Positions 945-38,508 of a DNA stretch of 54,562 bases are shown one piece after another. Numbering within the stretch: position 1 is the first letter of the stretch; each line of letters starts with the position of its first letter. Location: positions 1 to 54,562 of the IMG/VR virus record IMGVR_UViG_2568526722_000002. One strand, given 5' to 3'. The notes under the pieces are model-generated. The model had not been told where the DNA came from, did not search any database, and saw only the letters and a program-made list of their open reading frames with translations. The translations under genes and the position numbers were made by a program. This DNA comes from a virus (Duplodnaviria; Heunggongvirae; Uroviricota; Caudoviricetes).

Positions 945-3011
945 TTATTCCTCTGGGTAAGCTGAGCTAATCAAGGTATCTTCCTGCATACGATTAATAT
1001 GTGATGTTGTCCTTTCATCAATAACTTTCCCATCAAGTACCGTCTGAGTTGTGATATTGATTGTCTGAGGCTGAATATTTACTGACGGCTTGATAAGCTT
1101 TAAATCTTGTGTGAATGTTTCCACTCGACCTTTCAGATTATTTAATGCTTCAGGTGAAAACTGTGGAACATCTTTTGATTTGCCCTGAACCATAGCCCAT
1201 AAAACAGTGGCTAAAGAGTTCATGTCACCAGTTAATGCTTGGTCTGTGGGTTCCACCTTTGACCTTACAACTTTATCAATTGGATTATCTGACTTACTCA
1301 TCTGACGTTCATAGAACGGTTTGACAATGGCATTAATCACATCAGTTGCCATACCGATAATCACTACTTTGGTAATTGCATCAGCTACAGATAATTTTCC
1401 TTTACCACCTTCAACACTACCGGAACGTGAATTAATTCTTCCTGCTGCTGTATTTGCTACATTTCCAAGCGTGGAAATAGCCCTAATTAAGTTCCAGATA
1501 CCACCTACAGCACCAATACCAGACCTTACAGCGACAATACCAGCAAGTCCCTTTAATGCACTTAACAGGCCATTTGCGATACCATCAGCTACAGCTTTTT
1601 GAGTGTCATTTAATTCTCTGTAAGCAAGGGTCACTCTGTCAAAGAATCCCTGCACTCGGTAGCTAATCGTGGTTAAATCATCAATACCGTTTGACATGCT
1701 TTTCATCAAGTCGCCAAAATGTTCACCAAGATTTTTAGCTTGACCACCCAGTGAATTAAGTAAATTAGTCAGTGACCTTGTAAAGTCTGTTAAACCTTCC
1801 TGTGAACCATCGAACATTAAGGCCAGATTATTATTCCATGAATTACTTAAGCGGCCTAACTGCGTCTGAGTAGAGTTAATAATCTTTTCCCATCCACCAG
1901 CTTTATCAATCATCCTTCCCATTTCAGCGGATACTTTAGGGAGAACATCTTTAGAAAGAACCTTACCGTCTTTCATGGCCTTGTCTAATTCTTCTGTAGT
2001 CATCCCAAGGCTTCTGGCAAATAACTGGAAAGCACCTGCCATTCTGTCACCTAATTGACCACGTAGCTCTTCAGCCTGAATCTTCCCTTTAGAAGCCATC
2101 TGCTCGAAAGCTTTCAGAATCCCGTTAATTTCATCAGTACTTAAACCCATTAATCTGGATGTGCCAATCACATTAGAAAATAGGGATTCTTTCTGGTCTG
2201 TATTCATATCACCAGCACCAGCGGAAAACTTAGCAAAACTGCTTAATGTTTCAATCTGGTCTACACCTGTATTATTAGCAAGATTCTTAACGAAGTCTGT
2301 AGCTCGTTTAGCGCCTTCATCGCCTAATACAAATTGTGCCGCTCGTTGTGATGCTTCTTTTTTCAGACCAACCTCCATAATCTTCCTATAAGCTTCTAAG
2401 GCTGTCTGAAAACTATAAATGGCTGTACCTGCTTTGATTGCACTTGTAGCTAATACATCTAAACCATTTGAAGCATTTTCACTGTGATTGTTTTTGCTGG
2501 TGGTCTTATTAAACTTAGAAAGTGTTTCACGTAGATTTTGATTTAACTTTGCTAACTCACGATTAAAAGCTTCGTTCCCAAGTGTCTTGGATTTACCGCT
2601 TAAGCTGTAATACTGGCTTCTAAAATACTTCTCAAGTAGAGGATTAAAGTCACGAAGCTTGCTCATATTCACGCTATGCGCTGCTGTGATTGCTCTGTTT
2701 CCGCTAATTCGTGGCTGTCTTGGCTGTCTAAGTGGCTTTAAAGTATCCTCAATTTCAGTTTTAATCTTAAACGCTTTAGTGTTTTTAAGACGCTGCTCAA
2801 TCTTGGAAACAGTCTTATCGACATTTCTTTCCATGACCTTGAGAGAATCATTTAAAGGCGTAGGGTTAACTCTGAATGCCTTATTTAGTCGTTTCTCAAT
2901 TCTTGATGCGATTTGCATCGTTTGTTTCTCGGCTTTTTCCAAGCCTTTTAAAACTTTCTGAGAGTTAAAACTTAACTCAATCAGAAAATCATCAACTTTA
3001 AACTGTGCCAT
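945..3011 (-). CDS. tail tape-measure-like protein
   Basis: 688-aa, largely helical ORF. Its core segment ...ELRGQLGDRMAGAFQLFARSLGMTTEELDKAMKDGKV... is typical of tape-measure proteins. The C-terminal third is Gly/Ala-rich and hydrophobic. Confidence 0.75.
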   Translation of the reverse strand: MAQFKVDDFLIELSFNSQKVLKGLEKAEKQTMQIASRIEKRLNKAFRVNPTPLNDSLKVMERNVDKTVSKIEQRLKNTKAFKIKTEIEDTLKPLRQPRQPRISGNRAITAAHSVNMSKLRDFNPLLEKYFRSQYYSLSGKSKTLGNEAFNRELAKLNQNLRETLSKFNKTTSKNNHSENASNGLDVLATSAIKAGTAIYSFQTALEAYRKIMEVGLKKEASQRAAQFVLGDEGAKRATDFVKNLANNTGVDQIETLSSFAKFSAGAGDMNTDQKESLFSNVIGTSRLMGLSTDEINGILKAFEQMASKGKIQAEELRGQLGDRMAGAFQLFARSLGMTTEELDKAMKDGKVLSKDVLPKVSAEMGRMIDKAGGWEKIINSTQTQLGRLSNSWNNNLALMFDGSQEGLTDFTRSLTNLLNSLGGQAKNLGEHFGDLMKSMSNGIDDLTTISYRVQGFFDRVTLAYRELNDTQKAVADGIANGLLSALKGLAGIVAVRSGIGAVGGIWNLIRAISTLGNVANTAAGRINSRSGSVEGGKGKLSVADAITKVVIIGMATDVINAIVKPFYERQMSKSDNPIDKVVRSKVEPTDQALTGDMNSLATVLWAMVQGKSKDVPQFSPEALNNLKGRVETFTQDLKLIKPSVNIQPQTINITTQTVLDGKVIDERTTSHINRMQEDTLISSAYPEE

Positions 3012-3368: not shown

Positions 3369-4073
3369 TTAAATAACCTTACTAAATTCTCGTGGAACAC
3401 TCAAAAAGTCATTGAAGCTACTAATCTGTGCAAGCTCTTGTTTGTATTCCTTAGCGATTTTTTGATGGTCACGAATCAAATTAGCCAGAGTTGATTTCAC
3501 CAAATTAATCTCGGTTTCTCTTACCTTCATCAGTCGCTTTCTAGCCATTTCTTCAAGCTCAGCTTGTGATTTATCAGAAATAATTAAAGTCAGTTTATGT
3601 GGCGCTCTGACAGCTCTTTCTGTACGAACAACTCTTTGGCCTTCTGGTAAATCTGCAATCACTTTACCAATTTCTGAATGGTCATATCCCCAACCGTCAC
3701 GGTCTAGTCTTGTATAATAATCGTAGGTGTTTGTCTGAAGCTCCATCAAAATAGCCATTTCGTCAACTTCATTTTCAAGTTTGGACTGAAGTTTTTCGTA
3801 AACACGATTCATAGCTTTTTGAGAGTCTCGAAGGTCTTTGAAATATTTGCGTTGCAGCTTCAGTTTCAAATCAAGCTCACATTCCTCATTCATCGAAAAA
3901 TCAATTTCAACTCTTGGAATCTCAAATGGTTCTGGTGGAATATATGGACCTTTATTTACTTCGTGTGATTCCCGCCAAGCTCTATCAAAAGATTCACGCA
4001 AAGTTAATTCGTGAATATCAAGTGCACTTGGTCGGCTTTCAATAATCATTTCATTTTCATCACGGATAGCCAT
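3369..4073 (-). CDS. hypothetical coiled-coil protein
   Basis: 234-aa ORF with GAGGAAAGG SD and charged heptad-like sequence. Confidence 0.6.
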   Translation of the reverse strand: MAIRDENEMIIESRPSALDIHELTLRESFDRAWRESHEVNKGPYIPPEPFEIPRVEIDFSMNEECELDLKLKLQRKYFKDLRDSQKAMNRVYEKLQSKLENEVDEMAILMELQTNTYDYYTRLDRDGWGYDHSEIGKVIADLPEGQRVVRTERAVRAPHKLTLIISDKSQAELEEMARKRLMKVRETEINLVKSTLANLIRDHQKIAKEYKQELAQISSFNDFLSVPREFSKVI

Positions 4074-6953: not shown

Positions 6954-7066
6954 ACTCCCTCCAAAACCCCCTGTACGAGATGGTATAGGGGTATCTTTAG
7001 CATTTTGTGCTATCCATGAAAAAATAACTTGACAGAACCGGAAAGCTGTATCTATCAAGTATTCAC

Positions 7067-7251
7067 CCTTCTAACAGTAATTTCTAAAAGTTCTTATTTT
7101 TCAATAAGTTGTAATTAGCCATATATAGAGAACTGACAAGTCTCTTCACAGACAACTCTGCAACCTTAACAGTAACTTCTAAAAATGCTTATTTTTCAAC
7201 GAGTTGTAATCACCCAATATATAAGGCTGTCCAGCACCTTCACAGAGAAAC
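7067..7251. repeat. two ~90-bp tandem direct repeats (period ~96 bp)
   Basis: Each unit reads ccttNtaacagtaaYttctaaaa..ttatttttcaaYRagttgtaat..atatataRRg..cttcacaga. A condensed third copy lies at ~9313-9345. Confidence 0.7.
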
Positions 7252-7957
7252 TTCAGAGGTCTTCTTAATCAATCCACTAAGCGGGAGAGAGCGATAACCC
7301 CAGAGAGGGAAGCTCCCTTCTTAATCGGCCTCCTAACCAGTCTTTACAAACCTTGTTCAAGGTAATCACAATAGATTTTTCTTCCCTCGTTCTTCGTGTT
7401 CCTCGGTTTGCCTATTGAGACTTGAAAGACCTCTGTAACTTCCCTCTTAGACAGGGAAGAATAATATTGGTGACACAAGCGAAGCGCCCCTCTAAAAAGA
7501 TTTTTTAGCTATTTTGTTTAAAAACACATCAAACGATACATTTTATTGATTTAGGTCAAAGACAAAAGCATTGACAAAATGGTAAGATTGTTCACATGAC
7601 CTTACTTAACAGACTTTTAAGAGGCTTTGAAACGACCTACTTAACAAGGTCACTACATCTGGTCTTATCGTTCCCTGTCTTCTTGGTAGTTCTGTTAAGT
7701 ATCTTTTCAGGTATCTCTTACAGTCACTGTTAAGATGATACTCTCCCTTCGGGTTATATCGTATCTCTTCCCCCGTTAAACACTCCTTCCTAACAACTTC
7801 ATAGTTATCTGTCAAGTACCTTTGAAGATTCTATCAAGACCTCTAAATCTGACCTGATATAGATGCTGTGAAGGCATGTTCTCTAGGTCTGTGTAGCTTA
7901 CTTAGCGGGAAAAGAGGATATGGTGACCATAGGGGAACCCCTCCTGTTAAAAGTTTC

Positions 7958-7985
7958 TTGATGTTATCATCACAATATGTATAAT
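7958..7985 (+). promoter_or_regulatory. sigma70 promoter TTGATG-16-TATAAT
   Basis: ttgatg ttatcatcacaatatg tataat. Confidence 0.6.
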
Positions 7986-7991
7986 CACCAA

Positions 7992-8152
7992 CTGTACAGA
8001 CACCTTAACGGTTTCTCTACACCTCACTATGGCTAGGTAGGGTATGGTTTAGCTTGGTACGGCTAGGTTAGGTCTGGTTTGGTTAGGTATGGGTGGATTG
8101 TCGTAGCCACGTTAAAAATCGACTTATAGGGACTCTTTCGGGAGTCCTTTTT
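7992..8152 (+). ncRNA. candidate ~160-nt small RNA with GG-dinucleotide repeat body
   Basis: Bounded by the promoter at 7958-7985 and an intrinsic terminator at 8130-8152. No ORF longer than 5 codons. 8031-8096 carries 13 GG/GGG tracts in two ~30-nt units (ggctaggt...). Confidence 0.45.
8130..8152 (+). terminator. intrinsic terminator
   Basis: GGACTC tttcgg GAGTCC followed by TTTTT. Confidence 0.7.
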
Positions 8153-8260
8153 AGTTTGTATAAAATCTGTACAGTAACTTTTCAGAGTCTGAAAATTTTT
8201 ATAAAAAATGACTAGCCCTCTTTGAATCTCATCTTCCCCGAATCTTCGAAAATATCTGTC

Positions 8261-8273
8261 TAGTTGATTCGGT
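8261..8273. repeat. left 13-bp inverted repeat flanking the recombinase cassette
   Basis: TAGTTGATTCGGT is the exact reverse complement of 9119-9131 (ACCGAATCAACTA). Confidence 0.8.
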
Positions 8274-8381
8274 AGAATCTACCTCATGATGTATACCTGC
8301 TAAGTACCCGTCACACCAGCTATGTGACCCCCTTTGCAAAAAAGCCAAATATCAGCTACATCCATGTAACTATTCGGTAAC

Positions 8382-8930
8382 TTATTTAGCAAGTCTGTAA
8401 TAAGTTGCTTTAGAGATTCCTAATTCTTCCTGAATCTGCAACCTCGTTTTACCTTGTGAAATAAGCGTCTGTACAGCCTCTGAAGAAGCTTTTACAGGCC
8501 TCCCCATATGTACCCCTTCAGCTTTAGCACGTTCAATACCAGCCTTTCTACGTTCACTGATAAGGTCTTTTTCAAGGTCAGCTAAACCAGCCATCATAGT
8601 AAGCATTGCTCTACCGATTGGTGTTAATAAGTCGAAACCTTCACGCAAAGAAACAACTCTCACACCTTTAGTCTGTAGTGCCTCCACGTTAGAGAGCACA
8701 TCAACGGTATTACGCCCTAAACGGTCAATAGCTACCACAACTAACGTATCGTCACACCTTACATAGTTCATCATGTCTCTAAAACCATCTCTGCTGGTGG
8801 CCTTTGTAGCTCCTGAGACAGCCTCATCAATAAACCATTTATCGACCTTGTGAACCTTCTCTATCTGTAGTTTCTGGTTGTCTACAGTCTGGTCTTGTGT
8901 TGATACCCTGCAATAACCAATCACCGCCAT
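8382..8930 (-). CDS. small serine recombinase (resolvase/invertase family)
   Basis: MAVIGYCRVSTQDQ... (catalytic Ser motif), ...VVVAIDRLGRN..., and a C-terminal HTH (LGISKATYYRLAK). 182 aa, with AAGGGGGA SD. Confidence 0.9.
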   Translation of the reverse strand: MAVIGYCRVSTQDQTVDNQKLQIEKVHKVDKWFIDEAVSGATKATSRDGFRDMMNYVRCDDTLVVVAIDRLGRNTVDVLSNVEALQTKGVRVVSLREGFDLLTPIGRAMLTMMAGLADLEKDLISERRKAGIERAKAEGVHMGRPVKASSEAVQTLISQGKTRLQIQEELGISKATYYRLAK

Positions 8931-9585: not shown

Positions 9586-9728
9586 ATCAGGATCAGTGAA
9601 AATGTCATTTTTGGCGTAATTACCCTTACTTTATGCATGGCCTTAACAAAGACATCATCTTTCCGTTGCAGATCTTCGCCCTTTCAAATAACGTACTTTA
9701 CAACTTTCCCGAACAAGGAGTTGTGCCC

Positions 9729-10025
9729 GTGTTGTATGTTATTTACGCTCAAGACAAAGCTGATAGCCTCGAAAAACGCCTTTCCGTTCGTCCGGCACAT
9801 TTAGCACGTTTACAGTTACTGCATGATGAAGGTCGTTTGTTGACAGCTGGTCCAATGCCAGCGGTAGACAGTAACGATCCAGGGGCTGCGGGATTTACTG
9901 GCTCAACCGTTATTGCTGAATTTGAATCGCTGGAAGCAGCTCAGGCCTGGGCCGATGCTGACCCGTACGTAGCGGCAGGAGTCTATGAACACGTTTCAGT
10001 GAAACCATTTAAGAAAGTGTTCTAA
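9729..10025 (+). CDS. yciI: YciI-family protein
   Basis: From a GTG start: [98 protein letters not shown]. This matches E. coli YciI (98 aa) from memory. Confidence 0.9.
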
Positions 10026-10143: not shown

Positions 10144-10692
10144 TCAGCTAGCTGGAAACTTTTTATACAGAGTTGAGAGCCCTACTCCATACGTTTTTGA
10201 TACGCTTTGTCGTGATTCACCGGTTGCCATCCGCTCCCCCATTTCCCGCCATTGCTCATCCGTGAACTTAGGCCTGCGACCACCAACTCGCCATTTTGCC
10301 CTGGCTACGGCCAGCCCTGCTAAGGTACGTTCGCTATTAAGATCAGATTCATATTGTGCTGCGGAAAGGATGTTACGAAAGTTATAGCGGCCGCTGGCTG
10401 TTTTGAGATCCACGCCATCGGTAATACTGCGGAAGTTGATACCCTTTTCCTGTAACTGCTGGAACATCAACAGCGCATGCAGAACGTTGCGGCCTATCCT
10501 GTCCAGCTTCCAGACCACCAGTTCATCCCCCGGCTGCATAGTGGCGATCAGCCGTTTTAGAACCGGCCGATTCGATTTCCTCCCGCTGGCATGCTCTTCA
10601 AAAATTTTCTCACAACCCGCTGACTTGAGCGCCGTTAGTTGCAATTCAGTGTCCTGGTGGTTTGTTGATACTCGGGCATAACCGTAAATCAT
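10144..10692 (-). CDS. DNA invertase (Pin/Gin/Hin/Cin family serine recombinase)
   Basis: MIYGYARVSTNHQDTELQ..., VVWKLDRIGRN, INFRSITDG, and a C-terminal ...GLSTLYKKFPAS that resembles Pin ...LSTLYKKHPA. Confidence 0.9.
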   Translation of the reverse strand: MIYGYARVSTNHQDTELQLTALKSAGCEKIFEEHASGRKSNRPVLKRLIATMQPGDELVVWKLDRIGRNVLHALLMFQQLQEKGINFRSITDGVDLKTASGRYNFRNILSAAQYESDLNSERTLAGLAVARAKWRVGGRRPKFTDEQWREMGERMATGESRQSVSKTYGVGLSTLYKKFPAS

Positions 10693-13075: not shown

Positions 13076-14916
13076 CCCCCGATAAAAAATTCTTTTTTAA
13101 TTGCTCTCGTCAGTACATACGCGCCAAGAGGACTTAGATGGAGGCCGTCAGCCCATGCCCCCCCAACACTGTTATAAACCTTTGGAAATAGTTGATACCC
13201 ACTAATAAAATTAACATTTTGCTCTACAGCTATTTCCCTCATTGTTTTATCGTACTCTGACAATGCTGGCGTACCTGTAGCGTTGCATTGCGCGGGTGAC
13301 ATTAGGCAGATGCAAATATCTGGCGTTGCACTACGGTATTTCGAGATAATCTCAACTATTCCTGACTTGTACTCAGCGACACCCTGGCTCAGTCTGAAGT
13401 CATTTGTCCCGAGAATAATAAACAGCAGATCAATGTCCAGATATTGCGCTACTGGCTGTATCCATAATGAAAAGTTGAAATAATCGCTCGCTATAGATGC
13501 TCCGTTGCCCATCCTTGATACGGTAAGCCCAGATGCAATAGAGTTATTTTTACCGTACATTCCAAGGATAGAAACAACACCGGTACCGGTACTTTGGATC
13601 GTCACCGTATGTGCGGTCGCGCTAAGTCCGCTGAAATCATATTTCTTGGCAGTTCCTGTATTCCCTCCCGTGATTGTTACGGGTGTATTACTGTCGATGG
13701 TGATAGTGAACGTTCCAGACCCGTCATAATAAAATACTGATAGATTTGTTACGGTCACGCCGGTCCAGACGAGAGAACCAACAGTGTTGTTGTTATAGTA
13801 CCCGTTTCCATCAGGCCCGCAGCCATATGGCGGAATGTTCGTGTTATTGCTCCCACCATCATATTTTGTAAAGTTGGTGGCTGTAACGGGTGATATCCCG
13901 GACATGACACCATCAGTTCTGTCTGAGCAACTGATCCACCCAGGGTCTTTGTATGTTCCACCAAGGATATTAATTAAAGACTGAGGAATGGTGTTTTTCT
14001 CTGTCCACGAATCGCCGGTAAAAGCAATGTTTAGGCTGGTAGACTGGCCAGCAAAAATACGGCTATTTTTGAAAAGGAACTTGTACTGATCTCCTTCGAT
14101 GAAGGAACGTACCGCATTAACTTCCCCACCAGACACCAGGTTTTTGACATATTCCTGCAATACCGGGCCAAGACCTGGAGCATCGAATAGCCCACCATTA
14201 AACCAAGCATATACGTTCCCTTGTTGGTCATATAAAAAAGGAAAGTAATAAGGTGAAAAGTCTCCTTGCGGTATAAACTTCTGGGCCCATTCGTTTGGAA
14301 TTTCAGAAACAACCTGTGTAACATTTGGCCCCAGTCCGGCCACATCAAATTTGCCGCCATCAAACCATGCTGGCACCATACTATTCCTGTCAAAGAAGGC
14401 CGGGAAATAACCAGGCCTGTATTCACCTGGGACGAGGCGCTCATTAATTTTATCATCAACGGTCTTGGTTGATGGCATTTGGCGCCCAGTAGGCTCCAGA
14501 GTCCCTCCGTTATTAATGACTTCAATTGCCAGCGAGCTATCATCAGGACTGCGATAATACGTGGCGCTTCCTGTCGGAATATTAGCAATATCTGCCTGTG
14601 CATCAGCAAGCGTCATGTATTGCTTGCTCAGAGGGATCAGGTTTTGGCGGGCTTCATCAATAACAGCGTCGGTAGCAGCTGCCATTTTTTTAGTAGCCCC
14701 AATTATCGTATCCCGGGCGTTACCAAAACGATCTATAAAAGTATCGCTTTCGCTGTTCAGGAAATCATCGTACGCCAGGGCGTTATCATTCAGATCCTTC
14801 ATGCTATTTGAAGGTCTTGGATTGCCGGTATTATATCTTTTGTCCATACCTGTTCCTGTCTTCATCTTTTCAATGAAGCAATTAAGATTGACGACCCGCC
14901 CCTTCAGGGCTAACAT
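13072..14916 (-). CDS. tailspike / tail fibre with C-terminal SGNH (GDSL) esterase domain
   Basis: SGNH blocks are present: FTGDSWTE, FIILGTNDF and ADGLHLSPLG. The N-terminus ...YNTGNPRPSNSMKDLNDNALAYDDFLNS is typical of fibre/spike adaptors. The true start may be the internal Met at 14865 or 14847. Confidence 0.75.
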   Translation of the reverse strand: MLALKGRVVNLNCFIEKMKTGTGMDKRYNTGNPRPSNSMKDLNDNALAYDDFLNSESDTFIDRFGNARDTIIGATKKMAAATDAVIDEARQNLIPLSKQYMTLADAQADIANIPTGSATYYRSPDDSSLAIEVINNGGTLEPTGRQMPSTKTVDDKINERLVPGEYRPGYFPAFFDRNSMVPAWFDGGKFDVAGLGPNVTQVVSEIPNEWAQKFIPQGDFSPYYFPFLYDQQGNVYAWFNGGLFDAPGLGPVLQEYVKNLVSGGEVNAVRSFIEGDQYKFLFKNSRIFAGQSTSLNIAFTGDSWTEKNTIPQSLINILGGTYKDPGWISCSDRTDGVMSGISPVTATNFTKYDGGSNNTNIPPYGCGPDGNGYYNNNTVGSLVWTGVTVTNLSVFYYDGSGTFTITIDSNTPVTITGGNTGTAKKYDFSGLSATAHTVTIQSTGTGVVSILGMYGKNNSIASGLTVSRMGNGASIASDYFNFSLWIQPVAQYLDIDLLFIILGTNDFRLSQGVAEYKSGIVEIISKYRSATPDICICLMSPAQCNATGTPALSEYDKTMREIAVEQNVNFISGYQLFPKVYNSVGGAWADGLHLSPLGAYVLTRAIKKEFFIGG

Positions 14917-14924
14917 CGCCTTAC

Positions 14925-15212
14925 GTGTTTAAACGGTTAAGTAAGAGAATGATTTTAATAAATAAATACACTCCTCCAACGCAGGAAGATTTAGCCAGAC
15001 TGAAATCCGCAATAAACTACTCCGGAAACCAAATGGCAGGGCTCGCAGGTGTAGCCAGCGATAGCCAATGGCGGAAATACACTGGCGGAGAGAGCCCCAG
15101 GGTAATGTCAAGACACATACTGTTTTATATTGCAGCTCAGCTTGTTCTGTCTGATGAGCAACTTAACAATGTAATAAATAAAATGCGCGATATTGGCGCG
15201 GAGATAAAATAA
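14925..15212 (+). CDS. XRE-type HTH protein
   Basis: ...LARLKSAINYSGNQMAGLAGVASDSQWRKYTGGESP.... Its stop overlaps the acyltransferase start (TAATG). The start is uncertain (GTG 14925 or ATG 14949). Confidence 0.55.
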   Translation: MFKRLSKRMILINKYTPPTQEDLARLKSAINYSGNQMAGLAGVASDSQWRKYTGGESPRVMSRHILFYIAAQLVLSDEQLNNVINKMRDIGAEIK

Positions 15213-16303
15213 TGCTTGGCCTAATAAGGTTTTTTTTGGCATCGTGCGTCATTGCTTTTCACTTAACGGCTCGCATACCTGCACTTGGCAACTTTGCAGT
15301 GAATTGCTTCTATGTTATCAGTGGTTTTTTAATAACATACATTTTGCATGAAACATACAAGTTCAACTTCTCTATGTTTTGGAAAAATAGAATACTGAGG
15401 TTATTCCCGGCATATATATTTTTTCTCGTCATGGGCTTTCTTATTATAAAATTAATTCCATCCGCAAAGGAATTCCACTCAAACTGGACAGGCAATTTCT
15501 TACCTGGAGATTTATTAGGAAACCTCTTAATCTTCCCCTGGGCTTTCCTTTCTGATAATGCTGTAGCAAATCCATTCGGTGCCTTTTCATCCATTTATCA
15601 CTTTGCTATTGATGGTAATAGATTCAGAATAGTCACATCATCATGGTCAGTGGGTGTTGAGATAACATGTTATTTTTTATTGTGGCTTTTCATAGCCCGA
15701 AATAAATTTACAGCCATTACGTCGATTCTGCTTTCACTGCTTTATCATGCTTACGTATATGTAGTACACCATTCTTTTGATATGGCGTATTTCCCATTCC
15801 TTGCTGCAACACTTCCTTTTAGCATGGGTTCTCTGGGTTATTTTGCCCATAGAAAGTTCAAAGCTATGTATCTTTCTCCACACAAAGCTTTTTTAATAAC
15901 ATTTATTTGCATCGGGATTTTTATTACCAATTGGTATTTATATACAATTAATGCATTAGGTCAGTACAACATAATACTTTACTACACCAATAATGTAATA
16001 GCATTGTTTACAACCCTGGTATTATTAAAAATAAAGACAAACATACATCTTGAGAAAATACTCAAGTGGTTTGGTGACCTGGCCTATCCAATTTTTCTTT
16101 GTCAATATTTTGGTGGATTTCTAGCATGGCTTGCTATTGGTGGTGAAAATCGTGGCTTATCCATCTTTTTATTAGGCTACCCAATATCAATTGCACTTGG
16201 GATCGTTTGTGTAATATTAATAGACAAGCCACTAATTAAAATTAGAGCAAAAATAAGGGCGGACGCTCAAAGCAAAAATAATCAGGAAAACTCTTCAAGG
16301 TAA
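15212..16303 (+). CDS. acyltransferase family 3 integral membrane protein (O-antigen O-acetyltransferase-like, Oac/OafA type)
   Basis: 363 aa and multi-pass hydrophobic. N-terminal ...FFLASCVIAFHL... carries the conserved His. The gene is very AT-rich relative to its flanks. Confidence 0.8.
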   Translation: MLGLIRFFLASCVIAFHLTARIPALGNFAVNCFYVISGFLITYILHETYKFNFSMFWKNRILRLFPAYIFFLVMGFLIIKLIPSAKEFHSNWTGNFLPGDLLGNLLIFPWAFLSDNAVANPFGAFSSIYHFAIDGNRFRIVTSSWSVGVEITCYFLLWLFIARNKFTAITSILLSLLYHAYVYVVHHSFDMAYFPFLAATLPFSMGSLGYFAHRKFKAMYLSPHKAFLITFICIGIFITNWYLYTINALGQYNIILYYTNNVIALFTTLVLLKIKTNIHLEKILKWFGDLAYPIFLCQYFGGFLAWLAIGGENRGLSIFLLGYPISIALGIVCVILIDKPLIKIRAKIRADAQSKNNQENSSR

Positions 16304-38414: not shown

Positions 38415-38442
38415 ATAAAAAAGCCCCGCACGATGGCGAGGC
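38415..38442 (-). terminator. intrinsic terminator (tR'-like, proximal to Q)
   Basis: Minus-strand read: GCCTCGC catcgt GCGGGGC followed by TTTTTTATTTGC (one G-U pair). Confidence 0.7.
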
Positions 38443-38508
38443 TCTTAATTCTTTGTCGACCTACGAAGCTATGGCGACGATATCAGATTTACATGAAATA
38501 TATGCGTT

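Follow-up and report, generated by a model that had tools for sequence, protein, structure and literature searches.

A probable orphan VIPR guide RNA gene on a satellite of Felix O1-like phages

We examined a stretch of 54,562 nucleotides from a tailed-virus record (IMG/VR record IMGVR_UViG_2568526722_000002, positions 1 to 54,562; the whole stretch is referred to here as 'the window'), focusing on a short transcription unit at positions 7958–8154. This unit is very probably the gene for a VIPR (Viral Interference Programmable Repeat) guide RNA, or vrRNA, of type II and of the SUSP1 clade, carried as an orphan on a satellite of Felix O1-like phages. A first-pass annotation, made from the sequence alone, had spotted the feature correctly, and it is real, but it was mis-parsed and misinterpreted: its description as a stand-alone non-coding RNA gene with functional GG tracts stands, and its proposals that those tracts form G-quadruplexes, a protein sponge or an antisense RNA are not supported. 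The vrRNA class, including the satellite-borne case, was published in 2026, so the finding as such is already known. Our literature searches turned up nothing relevant on a satellite or a small RNA (sRNA) of Felix O1, and the repeats go unmentioned in the paper on its genome.

VIPR is the subject of two 2026 preprints from the Doudna laboratory (bioRxiv 10.64898/2026.04.26.720920 and 10.64898/2026.04.26.720927). According to these preprints, a vrRNA consists of 9–16 YNNGG repeats and a 3′ tail, which in the SUSP1 clade is a pseudoknot; one protomer of Vipr, an ancestral RAMP protein, binds each GGY; and the GGY bases are unpaired, so that the NN dinucleotides alone pair with DNA, every third target base being skipped (10.64898/2026.04.26.720920,.720927). 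In the structures of Vipr with vrRNA, the protein holds every GGY in a flipped-out state (10.64898/2026.04.26.720927). Bound targets are transcriptionally silenced on either strand and with no protospacer-adjacent motif (PAM), and the SUSP1 system forms a gapped R-loop (10.64898/2026.04.26.720920,.720927). Mature SUSP1 vrRNAs are ∼100 nt long, and sRNA sequencing and Vipr pull-downs were performed for the SUSP1 and P. fulva vrRNAs (10.64898/2026.04.26.720920). In the SUSP1 clade, 18 of the 20 guides with identifiable targets match a satellite that carries tape-measure and hub homologues; satellite-borne vrRNAs are reported as well (10.64898/2026.04.26.720920,.720927). VIPR, a system of RNA-guided DNA recognition, is proposed to be older than CRISPR.

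Architecture of the RNA gene

The features of the unit are as follows.

7958–7985, + strand: sigma-70-type promoter, TTGATG-16-TATAAT, with 10 of 12 consensus matches by scan; activity predicted
near 7992, + strand: predicted transcription start
7986–8030, + strand: 5′ leader of the primary transcript, kept inside satellite subgroups and swapped between them
8031–8090, + strand: guide region of 12 in-phase GGYNN repeats, with one degenerate unit (AGCTT, 8051–8055)
8091–8125 (35 nt), + strand: conserved 3′ tail, an H-type pseudoknot with covariation among 13 distinct tails
8093–8096 (GUGG) with 8107–8110 (CCAC), + strand: pseudoknot stem 1
8100–8103 (GUCG) with 8120–8123 (CGAC), + strand: pseudoknot stem 2
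8111–8119, + strand: A-rich loop of the pseudoknot
8128–8154, + strand: intrinsic terminator, stem-loop AGGGACUC-UUUC-GGGAGUCCUU followed by a U-tract
7992–7999, no strand: CTGTACAG palindrome, copy 1, at the predicted start site
8167–8174, no strand: CTGTACAG palindrome, copy 2, just past the terminator

The body of the RNA (8031–8096) had been described as two units of ∼30 nt. It is in fact a period-5 array of 12 units (GGCTA GGTAG GGTAT GGTTT AGCTT GGTAC GGCTA GGTTA GGTCT GGTTT GGTTA GGTAT) that runs on into the GGGTGG of the conserved tail, the invariant block being GGGTGGATTGTCGTAGCCACGTTAAAAATCGAC. Within each GGYNN unit the GG and the pyrimidine are fixed and the NN is free, and the NN code of the window guide reads TA AG AT TT TT AC TA TA CT TT TA AT. 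Twelve units with hypervariable NN lie within the range of 9–16 GGY repeats that characterizes vrRNAs. The 524 units taken from 45 distinct modules have G at position 1 in 79% of cases (A or U in the remaining 21%), G at position 2 in 99%, and T (93%) or C (7%) at position 3, whereas any base may stand at positions 4 and 5; the units were collected by demanding GT at positions 2–3, so the frequencies at those two positions are partly set by that selection. The number of repeats per module ranges from 5 to 19 with a mode of 12 (9–12 in satellite copies), and a single-unit module among the 45 is probably an artefact of the unit-walking script.

When both strands were scanned for GT at a period of 5 nt (at least 8 hits out of 10), exactly one locus was found in the 54.5-kb window, and only the four vrRNA modules, in five partly overlapping rows, were found in the 88.5-kb phage wV8. 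The occupancy of the period-5 array is far beyond chance. The most that Tandem Repeats Finder reported was a weak array of period 15, an illustration of how the 5-nt register is overlooked.

The tail of the RNA folds as a pseudoknot (8093–8123), as expected of a vrRNA of this clade. Alignment of 13 distinct 3′ blocks, gap-free, gave three versions of stem 1 (GUGG/CCAC, AAGG/CCUU and GUAG/CUAC) and five of stem 2 (GUCG/CGAC, GGUAG/CUACC, GGCAG/CUGCC, AGUCUC/GAGACU and AAUCG/CGAUU). Of all cells in the proposed pairs 95.4% are paired, compared with 29–42% when the partners are slid, and compensatory changes are present in 9 of 10 pairs; none of 500 shuffles reached the observed values. The window tail is identical to that of SUSP1 vrRNA1 but for one compensated pair. 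Single-sequence folding of the entire RNA paired the repeats with one another through G-U; this fold does not exceed shuffled sequences in stability (z = −1.6) and was dropped.

A search of Rfam, at gathering thresholds and at E ≤ 10, gave no match at the vrRNA locus. Rfam 15 holds no vrRNA model, so such RNAs are at present unannotated; in genome annotation, a vrRNA should be called wherever a period-5 GGYNN array precedes a short pseudoknot.

The promoter, the terminator with its T5 tract and the lack of an open reading frame (ORF) beyond 5 codons, all proposed in the first-pass annotation, were borne out. Both signals were recovered by scan (the terminator at 8128–8149, with a 9-bp stem, a 4-nt loop and T5). 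Promoter-like sites are no more common in the region than in shuffles (9 found, 7.3 expected), and support for the promoter therefore comes from conservation rather than from the scan. In an alignment of 16 diverged homologues from E. coli chromosomes (A1; 70–100% identity), the −35/−10 pair is kept in all 16, as either TTGAYG-16-TATAAT or TTGACA-17-TAAGAT. The terminator is likewise kept in 16 of 16, with stem substitutions that retain pairing, G-U pairs included. The covariation of the pseudoknot and the G-U pairs of the terminator together indicate selection at the RNA level. Phage copies of the module lack a terminator of their own and read through into the next module or into vipr; its terminator makes the satellite copy a stand-alone transcript.

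No credible ORF is present in the region 7060–8380, and the longest ATG ORF within the unit is 5 codons; a 40-amino-acid (aa) GTG ORF at 8093–8215 crosses the terminator and was rejected. Given that mature SUSP1 vrRNAs are about 100 nt long, we infer that the transcript is trimmed at its 5′ and 3′ ends, with the leader probably being removed in maturation. The two CTGTACAG palindromes, invariant in the 16 homologues and absent from phage vrRNA loci, bracket the gene exactly. They might serve as an operator or as the borders of a guide cassette that can be swapped or regulated.

Homologous modules and their partner protein in helper phages

With positions 7930–8165 as query, blastn matched 108 phage records. 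All are Ounavirinae-type (Felix O1-like) genomes of 83–91 kb except for two outliers, a Salmonella phage record of 41.6 kb and a Citrobacter phage of 183 kb in which the match is short. The tail pattern was also found in 15 IMG/VR contigs, mostly of 86–94 kb. Felixounavirus and Suspvirus phages carry 1–4 vrRNA modules per genome, adjoining a gene for a 195-aa protein. The modules of phages ULIM3, wV8, Mushroom and SUSP1 follow the DNA ligase gene on its downstream side and stand behind a TTGACA-17-TATACT promoter, with 1–2 modules upstream and 2–3 downstream of the genes for the 195-aa and a 146-aa protein.

The 195-aa protein of wV8 (gp95), which adjoins the modules, matches PDB entry 36pp, 'SUSP1 Vipr protein', with an E value of 6e-128; it also matches phrog_4652 (unknown function) and has no Pfam domain. 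The same family was reached from an exact scan of IMG/VR for nine GGTNN units, which returned more than 120 contigs, about half of them microsatellites. The NN content of the remaining 64 loci is complex, and their repeats often form long tandem arrays that directly precede genes. When the ORFs of these unrelated viral loci were clustered together with those of wV8, one family, with a median length of 195 aa and with gp95 among its members, was found at 48 of the 64; in the other 16 no Vipr gene lay within the DNA examined. These loci fit the seven VIPR types of the preprint. The pattern GGTNNGGTNNGGTATGGRWRG, applied to genome contigs, was too unspecific, giving 120 chance matches and a period-5 array in none.

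Complex GGTNN arrays occur at IMG/VR loci L040–L367 (for example L324 2604–12922, L054 2217–3406, L042, L323, L335 and L343). Some of the at least 64 contigs with such arrays contain at least 13 tandem vrRNA-like units, or arrays of 20–80 repeats.

Searches with tblastn for vipr or vap found neither in the 54.5-kb window nor in 16 satellite loci (best E > 4), and the vrRNA gene is therefore an orphan. The homologous phage modules do flank vipr and vap; the window copy lacks such an adjoining RAMP gene and vap gene. Since satellite vrRNAs are reported in the preprint, the missing genes do not exclude the window copy from the class, and it is best placed as an orphan member. The features derived independently here (12 repeats, the division into GGY and NN, the pseudoknot, the linked 195-aa protein and the satellite) all agree with VIPR.

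Guide variability and a predicted target in rival satellites

Comparison of the window with another satellite (L003) indicates where the RNA gene changes: the flanks differ at 2 of 241 positions, the GGY triplets at 5 of 36 and the NN dinucleotides at 15 of 24. Turnover of the NN positions is thus far faster than that of the flanks, which suggests selection on specificity rather than drift.

We translated the guide into a target query under the one-nucleotide-skip rule (xNNxNN...), nTAnAGnATnTTnTTnACnTAnTAnCTnTTnTAnAT, and searched ∼226 kb of satellite DNA, the complete wV8 genome and fragments of ∼20 other phages. The query nTAnAGnATnTTnTTnACnTAnTAnCTnTTnTAnAT scored 21/24 in satellites L488 and L489, 20/24 in L490, L491, L007 and L011, and 19/24 in L010. 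All of these top matches fall at one homologous non-coding site in rival satellites, which in L489 (1620–1655) reads ATACAGTGTGTTTTTAACATAATAGCTGTTTTACGC. Permuted window guides reached 20/24 in 2 of 1000 trials (mean 17.1, maximum 20). A sister guide (L004, from O111:H- strain 11128) differs in one unit, and the change is toward the target: it scores 21/24 at the L007/L011 site, a value reached by none of 1000 permuted guides, and a reading of the sequences by eye, rather than a computed score, gives 22/24 at the L489 site. Skip lengths of 0 and 2 gave 17–18, and a skip of 3 gave only the trivial match of the guide to its own gene.

The best match inside the window is 17/24, so the guide has no self-target. 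Within this limited search space, then, the guide behaves as a vrRNA guide should, with a predicted target matched at 80% or more of its NN positions under the one-nucleotide skip and none in its own element. The target lies in a ∼450-nt segment that replaces the recombinase cassette (8382–8930) in the rival satellites. Sequence like the 231-nt target-bearing stretch was found in 289 of 5426 E. coli genomes and is absent from the window satellite. The decoded guide has a significant and conserved target match in rival satellites. A scan of viral contigs with the AT-rich core of the predicted target gave only chance matches among the matches listed.

The satellite and the phage guides that match it

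Positions 1 to ∼9500 of the window belong to a satellite of ∼11 kb that is integrated beside yciI and has Felix O1-like phages (Felixounavirus and Suspvirus) as its helpers; these positions have a G+C content of ∼39% compared with ∼54% for the chromosome. The main genes of the satellite and the sites in them that match phage guides are as follows.

1–771, − strand: Dit-like baseplate hub, 256 aa (Pfam Dit_like, phrog_3721)
262–297, in the − strand hub gene: predicted phage-vrRNA target, guide L139, 19/24
945–3011, − strand: tape measure protein, 688 aa (Pfam TMP_3, phrog_4036)
1381–1410, in the − strand tape measure gene: predicted phage-vrRNA target, guide L079, 17/20, the skipped bases coinciding with codon wobble positions
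8382–8930, − strand: small serine recombinase of the resolvase/invertase type (Pfam Resolvase and HTH_7), adjoining the vrRNA gene

The hub is 66% identical to gp74 of wV8 and the tape measure protein 28% identical to gp73; the preprints give 72% and 26%, respectively, between the satellite and SUSP1 (10.64898/2026.04.26.720920,.720927). The tape measure protein is 688 aa long, compared with 742 aa in the helper. As judged from sequence, the tape measure gene marks the element as a VIPR-targeted satellite, and both homologues of helper tail genes are matched by phage vrRNA guides. Such guides match satellites at 85–92% of NN positions and 45 kb of control chromosome at 60–79%. None of 2000 permuted guides equalled the score of L079, and none of 2000 that of L139. 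A single locus thus displays conflict in both directions, with phage guides matching the tail genes of the satellite and the satellite guide matching a rival satellite.

The satellite also encodes an HNH endonuclease and several ORFs of unknown function. Pfam and PHROGs scans gave no function for five small satellite ORFs or for a 234-aa ORF at 3369–4073, and in the part of the satellite within the window they found no capsid, terminase or recognisable replication genes. A gene for a large serine recombinase opens the element; it lies just left of the window, outside these scans. In E. coli the same element is located at tonB/yciI, at wrbA/ymdF or beside yecN. Of 5426 complete E. coli genomes, 547 match a 2.3-kb stretch around the vrRNA gene, 91 of them over at least 80% of the query, and 153 match the vrRNA gene itself. 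In E. coli O55:H7 TB182A the vrRNA gene shows no difference from that of the window, and identity over the 2.3-kb stretch is 98%. The recombinase cassette is variable, being absent from L007, L010 and L011.

Several further observations concern the satellite and its surroundings. Relatives (L005 882–1550, L488 1–508 and L490 591–1115) carry differing cargo upstream of the vrRNA or target segment, for example a DNA N6-adenine methyltransferase or an AP2/ERF-type protein, and IS3 or IS21 insertions are frequent; the satellite family is mosaic. Positions 8167–8354, and also 7560–7800, resemble a 1.7-kb gene-free region that lies between convergent gene blocks in Felixounavirus (wV8 13884–15531; JH2 L017 2483–4179) and is rich in TTAACA and CTAACAAG words; the similarity begins at the second CTGTACAG copy, at 8167. 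The non-coding DNA at 8167–8354 may mimic a packaging or replication signal of the helper. Outside the satellite, just past yciI (9633–10025), lies a second small serine recombinase ORF of 182 aa (10144–10692, − strand), and the G+C content climbs only gradually over 10–12 kb, so another small inserted element may be present there. An unrelated Rfam match, to isrJ (an Hfq-binding sRNA of a Salmonella island), is located at 38420–38493 on the − strand (68.7 bits, E 1.3e-10).

Weighing the alternatives

Several points weigh against the assignment of the unit as a vrRNA gene whose guide is aimed at rival satellites. The target match is imperfect (83–88%), the tail-proximal unit never matches, and the AT-rich guide raises the background. 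One repeat of the window, AGCTT, lacks its first G. The promoter and the transcript ends are predicted. The predicted target is non-coding, and no promoter-like site overlaps it in the rival satellite; given the limited search space, a better target could exist elsewhere, for example in the helper phage. Finally, the assignment presupposes that helper Vipr would load a satellite vrRNA in trans.

The same locus might instead act as an anti-VIPR decoy, in which an orphan vrRNA soaks up Vipr (∼12 protomers per RNA) or forms non-productive filaments, thereby thinning out the complexes that the helper directs against satellites, and the NN content matters little. The satellite has retained a strong promoter and a Vipr-compatible tail with no vipr gene of its own, and it has a motive, since phage guides match its tape-measure and hub genes and, at 85–92% of NN positions, other satellites. 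Against a decoy stand a statistically supported and conserved target in rival satellites, a sister guide that fits this target better, and an NN turnover far faster than that of the flanks, and we consider a pure decoy unlikely. Decoy and guide roles are compatible and could coexist. In a combined form, which we regard as a long shot, the satellite would hijack helper Vipr against its rivals while a high-copy decoy starved the helper's own anti-satellite vrRNAs of Vipr; if true, it would amount to an 'anti-VIPR' made of RNA only, comparable to RNA anti-CRISPRs. The guide might also have its target in the helper phage or in a host gene, for instance to retune helper expression in favour of the satellite; this is in keeping with the action of VIPR on either strand with no PAM and with a search that took in one complete helper genome (wV8) and fragments of ∼20. 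The best scores in phage DNA, however, are 17–18/24, values that permuted guides also attain (mean 17.1, maximum 20), the best in the window's 45 kb of host DNA is 17/24, and the top matches all lie at one homologous satellite site, which makes such a target quite improbable.

The readings offered in the first-pass annotation fare worse than that of a vrRNA. In their favour, the 13 GG tracts of the window copy, spaced by 3 nt, are in principle able to fold into two-tier G-quadruplexes, and the region belongs to no Rfam family. Among homologous units, however, 21% have another base in place of the first G, and ∼100% keep a pyrimidine at position 3, which points to recognition by a protein and argues against selection for a G-quadruplex, and in the published structures GGY is held by protein (10.64898/2026.04.26.720927). 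As a sponge for Hfq, ProQ or CsrA the RNA would have the wrong partner: Vipr, a RAMP protein, is encoded beside the homologous phage RNAs and its structure has been solved with such an RNA, the conserved triplet is GGY and not the GGA of CsrA sites, and the 5-nt spacing leaves no hairpins. The words to which GGTTAGG was held to be complementary are there, CCTAAC being present at 7332 and 9167; an antisense role is not supported, as the word is at chance frequency (15 in the window, 18.5 expected) and GGY is unpaired in vrRNAs. The predicted fold of the RNA, no better than that of shuffles, also speaks against this group of explanations, which we find very improbable. An action at the DNA level, as a replication origin (through an R-loop from a G-rich transcript) or as a packaging site copied from the helper, has in its favour that the satellite lacks recognisable replication genes, that the RNA-like strand is G-rich and C-poor, and that the adjacent 8167–8354 resembles a helper non-coding region. 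The annotation had itself named an ori or pac site as a competing outcome. None was found: the pseudoknot covariation and the G-U-preserving changes in the terminator reflect selection on RNA, and up to four modules per phage genome around vipr and vap is a layout unexpected for origins, so that we consider a DNA element highly improbable.

The match of the linked 195-aa protein to 'SUSP1 Vipr' led us to abandon six earlier ideas: a TRAP-like ring-protein site, a binder of a portal or dodecamer, an anti-Shine–Dalgarno or 30S sponge, a tRNA CCA-end binder, an R-loop origin and a ToxI-like antitoxin.

Proposed mechanism

We believe that the vrRNA gene would operate as follows. The sigma-70 promoter of the satellite would give a primary transcript of ∼165 nt comprising the leader, 12 GGYNN repeats, the pseudoknot tail and the terminator. 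During infection by a helper, the helper's ∼195-aa Vipr, a protein that the satellite itself does not encode, would coat the repeats with one RAMP protomer per GGY. The 12 NN dinucleotides would then be presented to double-stranded DNA under the one-nucleotide-skip rule, forming a gapped R-loop and blocking transcription. The guide would be aimed at a conserved non-coding site of rival satellites and not at its own element, so that the satellite probably turns the helper's weapon on competitors for the same helper. Architecture, homology, covariation, the absence of vipr and vap, NN hypervariability and the target match come from the present analysis, and binding, the skip rule and silencing from the preprints; from these together we infer the use of helper Vipr in trans and an effect on the rival. 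If so, this would be a natural example of VIPR in its most stripped-down form, a parasite of a phage that carries the guide RNA gene only and relies on a protein of the phage.

Comparison with known systems

The closest relatives of the window gene are the type II vrRNAs of the SUSP1 clade, which have the same 12 GGYNN repeats with hypervariable NN and a near-identical pseudoknot tail. As with the vrRNAs of that clade, satellite-encoded ones included, the same satellite family is involved, the guide has a predicted one-nucleotide-skip target in a related satellite, and self-targeting is absent. Unlike the SUSP1 vrRNAs, the window copy has no vipr or vap in cis and would have to depend on helper Vipr in trans; it also has its own promoter and terminator, whereas in phages the copies are arranged in tandem, within the leader of the vipr-vap operon or in its 3′ region.

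The CRISPR RNAs (crRNAs) of class 1 systems, with their backbone of Cas7 (also a RAMP), share several of these properties: a RAMP protein polymerises along the guide RNA, DNA is recognised under RNA guidance, a thumb domain periodically breaks the pairing, and a conserved handle caps a variable guide. The period differs, being 5 nt with 2 pairing bases in VIPR and 6 nt with 5 pairing bases in class 1 CRISPR. VIPR also skips one in three target bases, has no CRISPR array, adaptation module or PAM, and is encoded by phages and satellites. Orphan or 'mini' CRISPR arrays on phages and mobile elements likewise provide a guide with no effector genes, use Cas proteins from another genome and target competitors. 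The window gene differs from them in the RNA and protein families involved, and in that the effector would come from the very helper virus on which the satellite is parasitic.

A more distant likeness is to the TRAP-binding leaders of Bacillus trp genes, in which ∼11–12 (G/U)AG triplets are separated by 2 free nucleotides and each is bound by one subunit of an oligomer. The triplet there is (G/U)AG and not GGY, and the protein is an 11-membered ring rather than a helical RAMP filament. The spacers of TRAP leaders are inert linkers, whereas the spacer nucleotides of VIPR are the functional guide.

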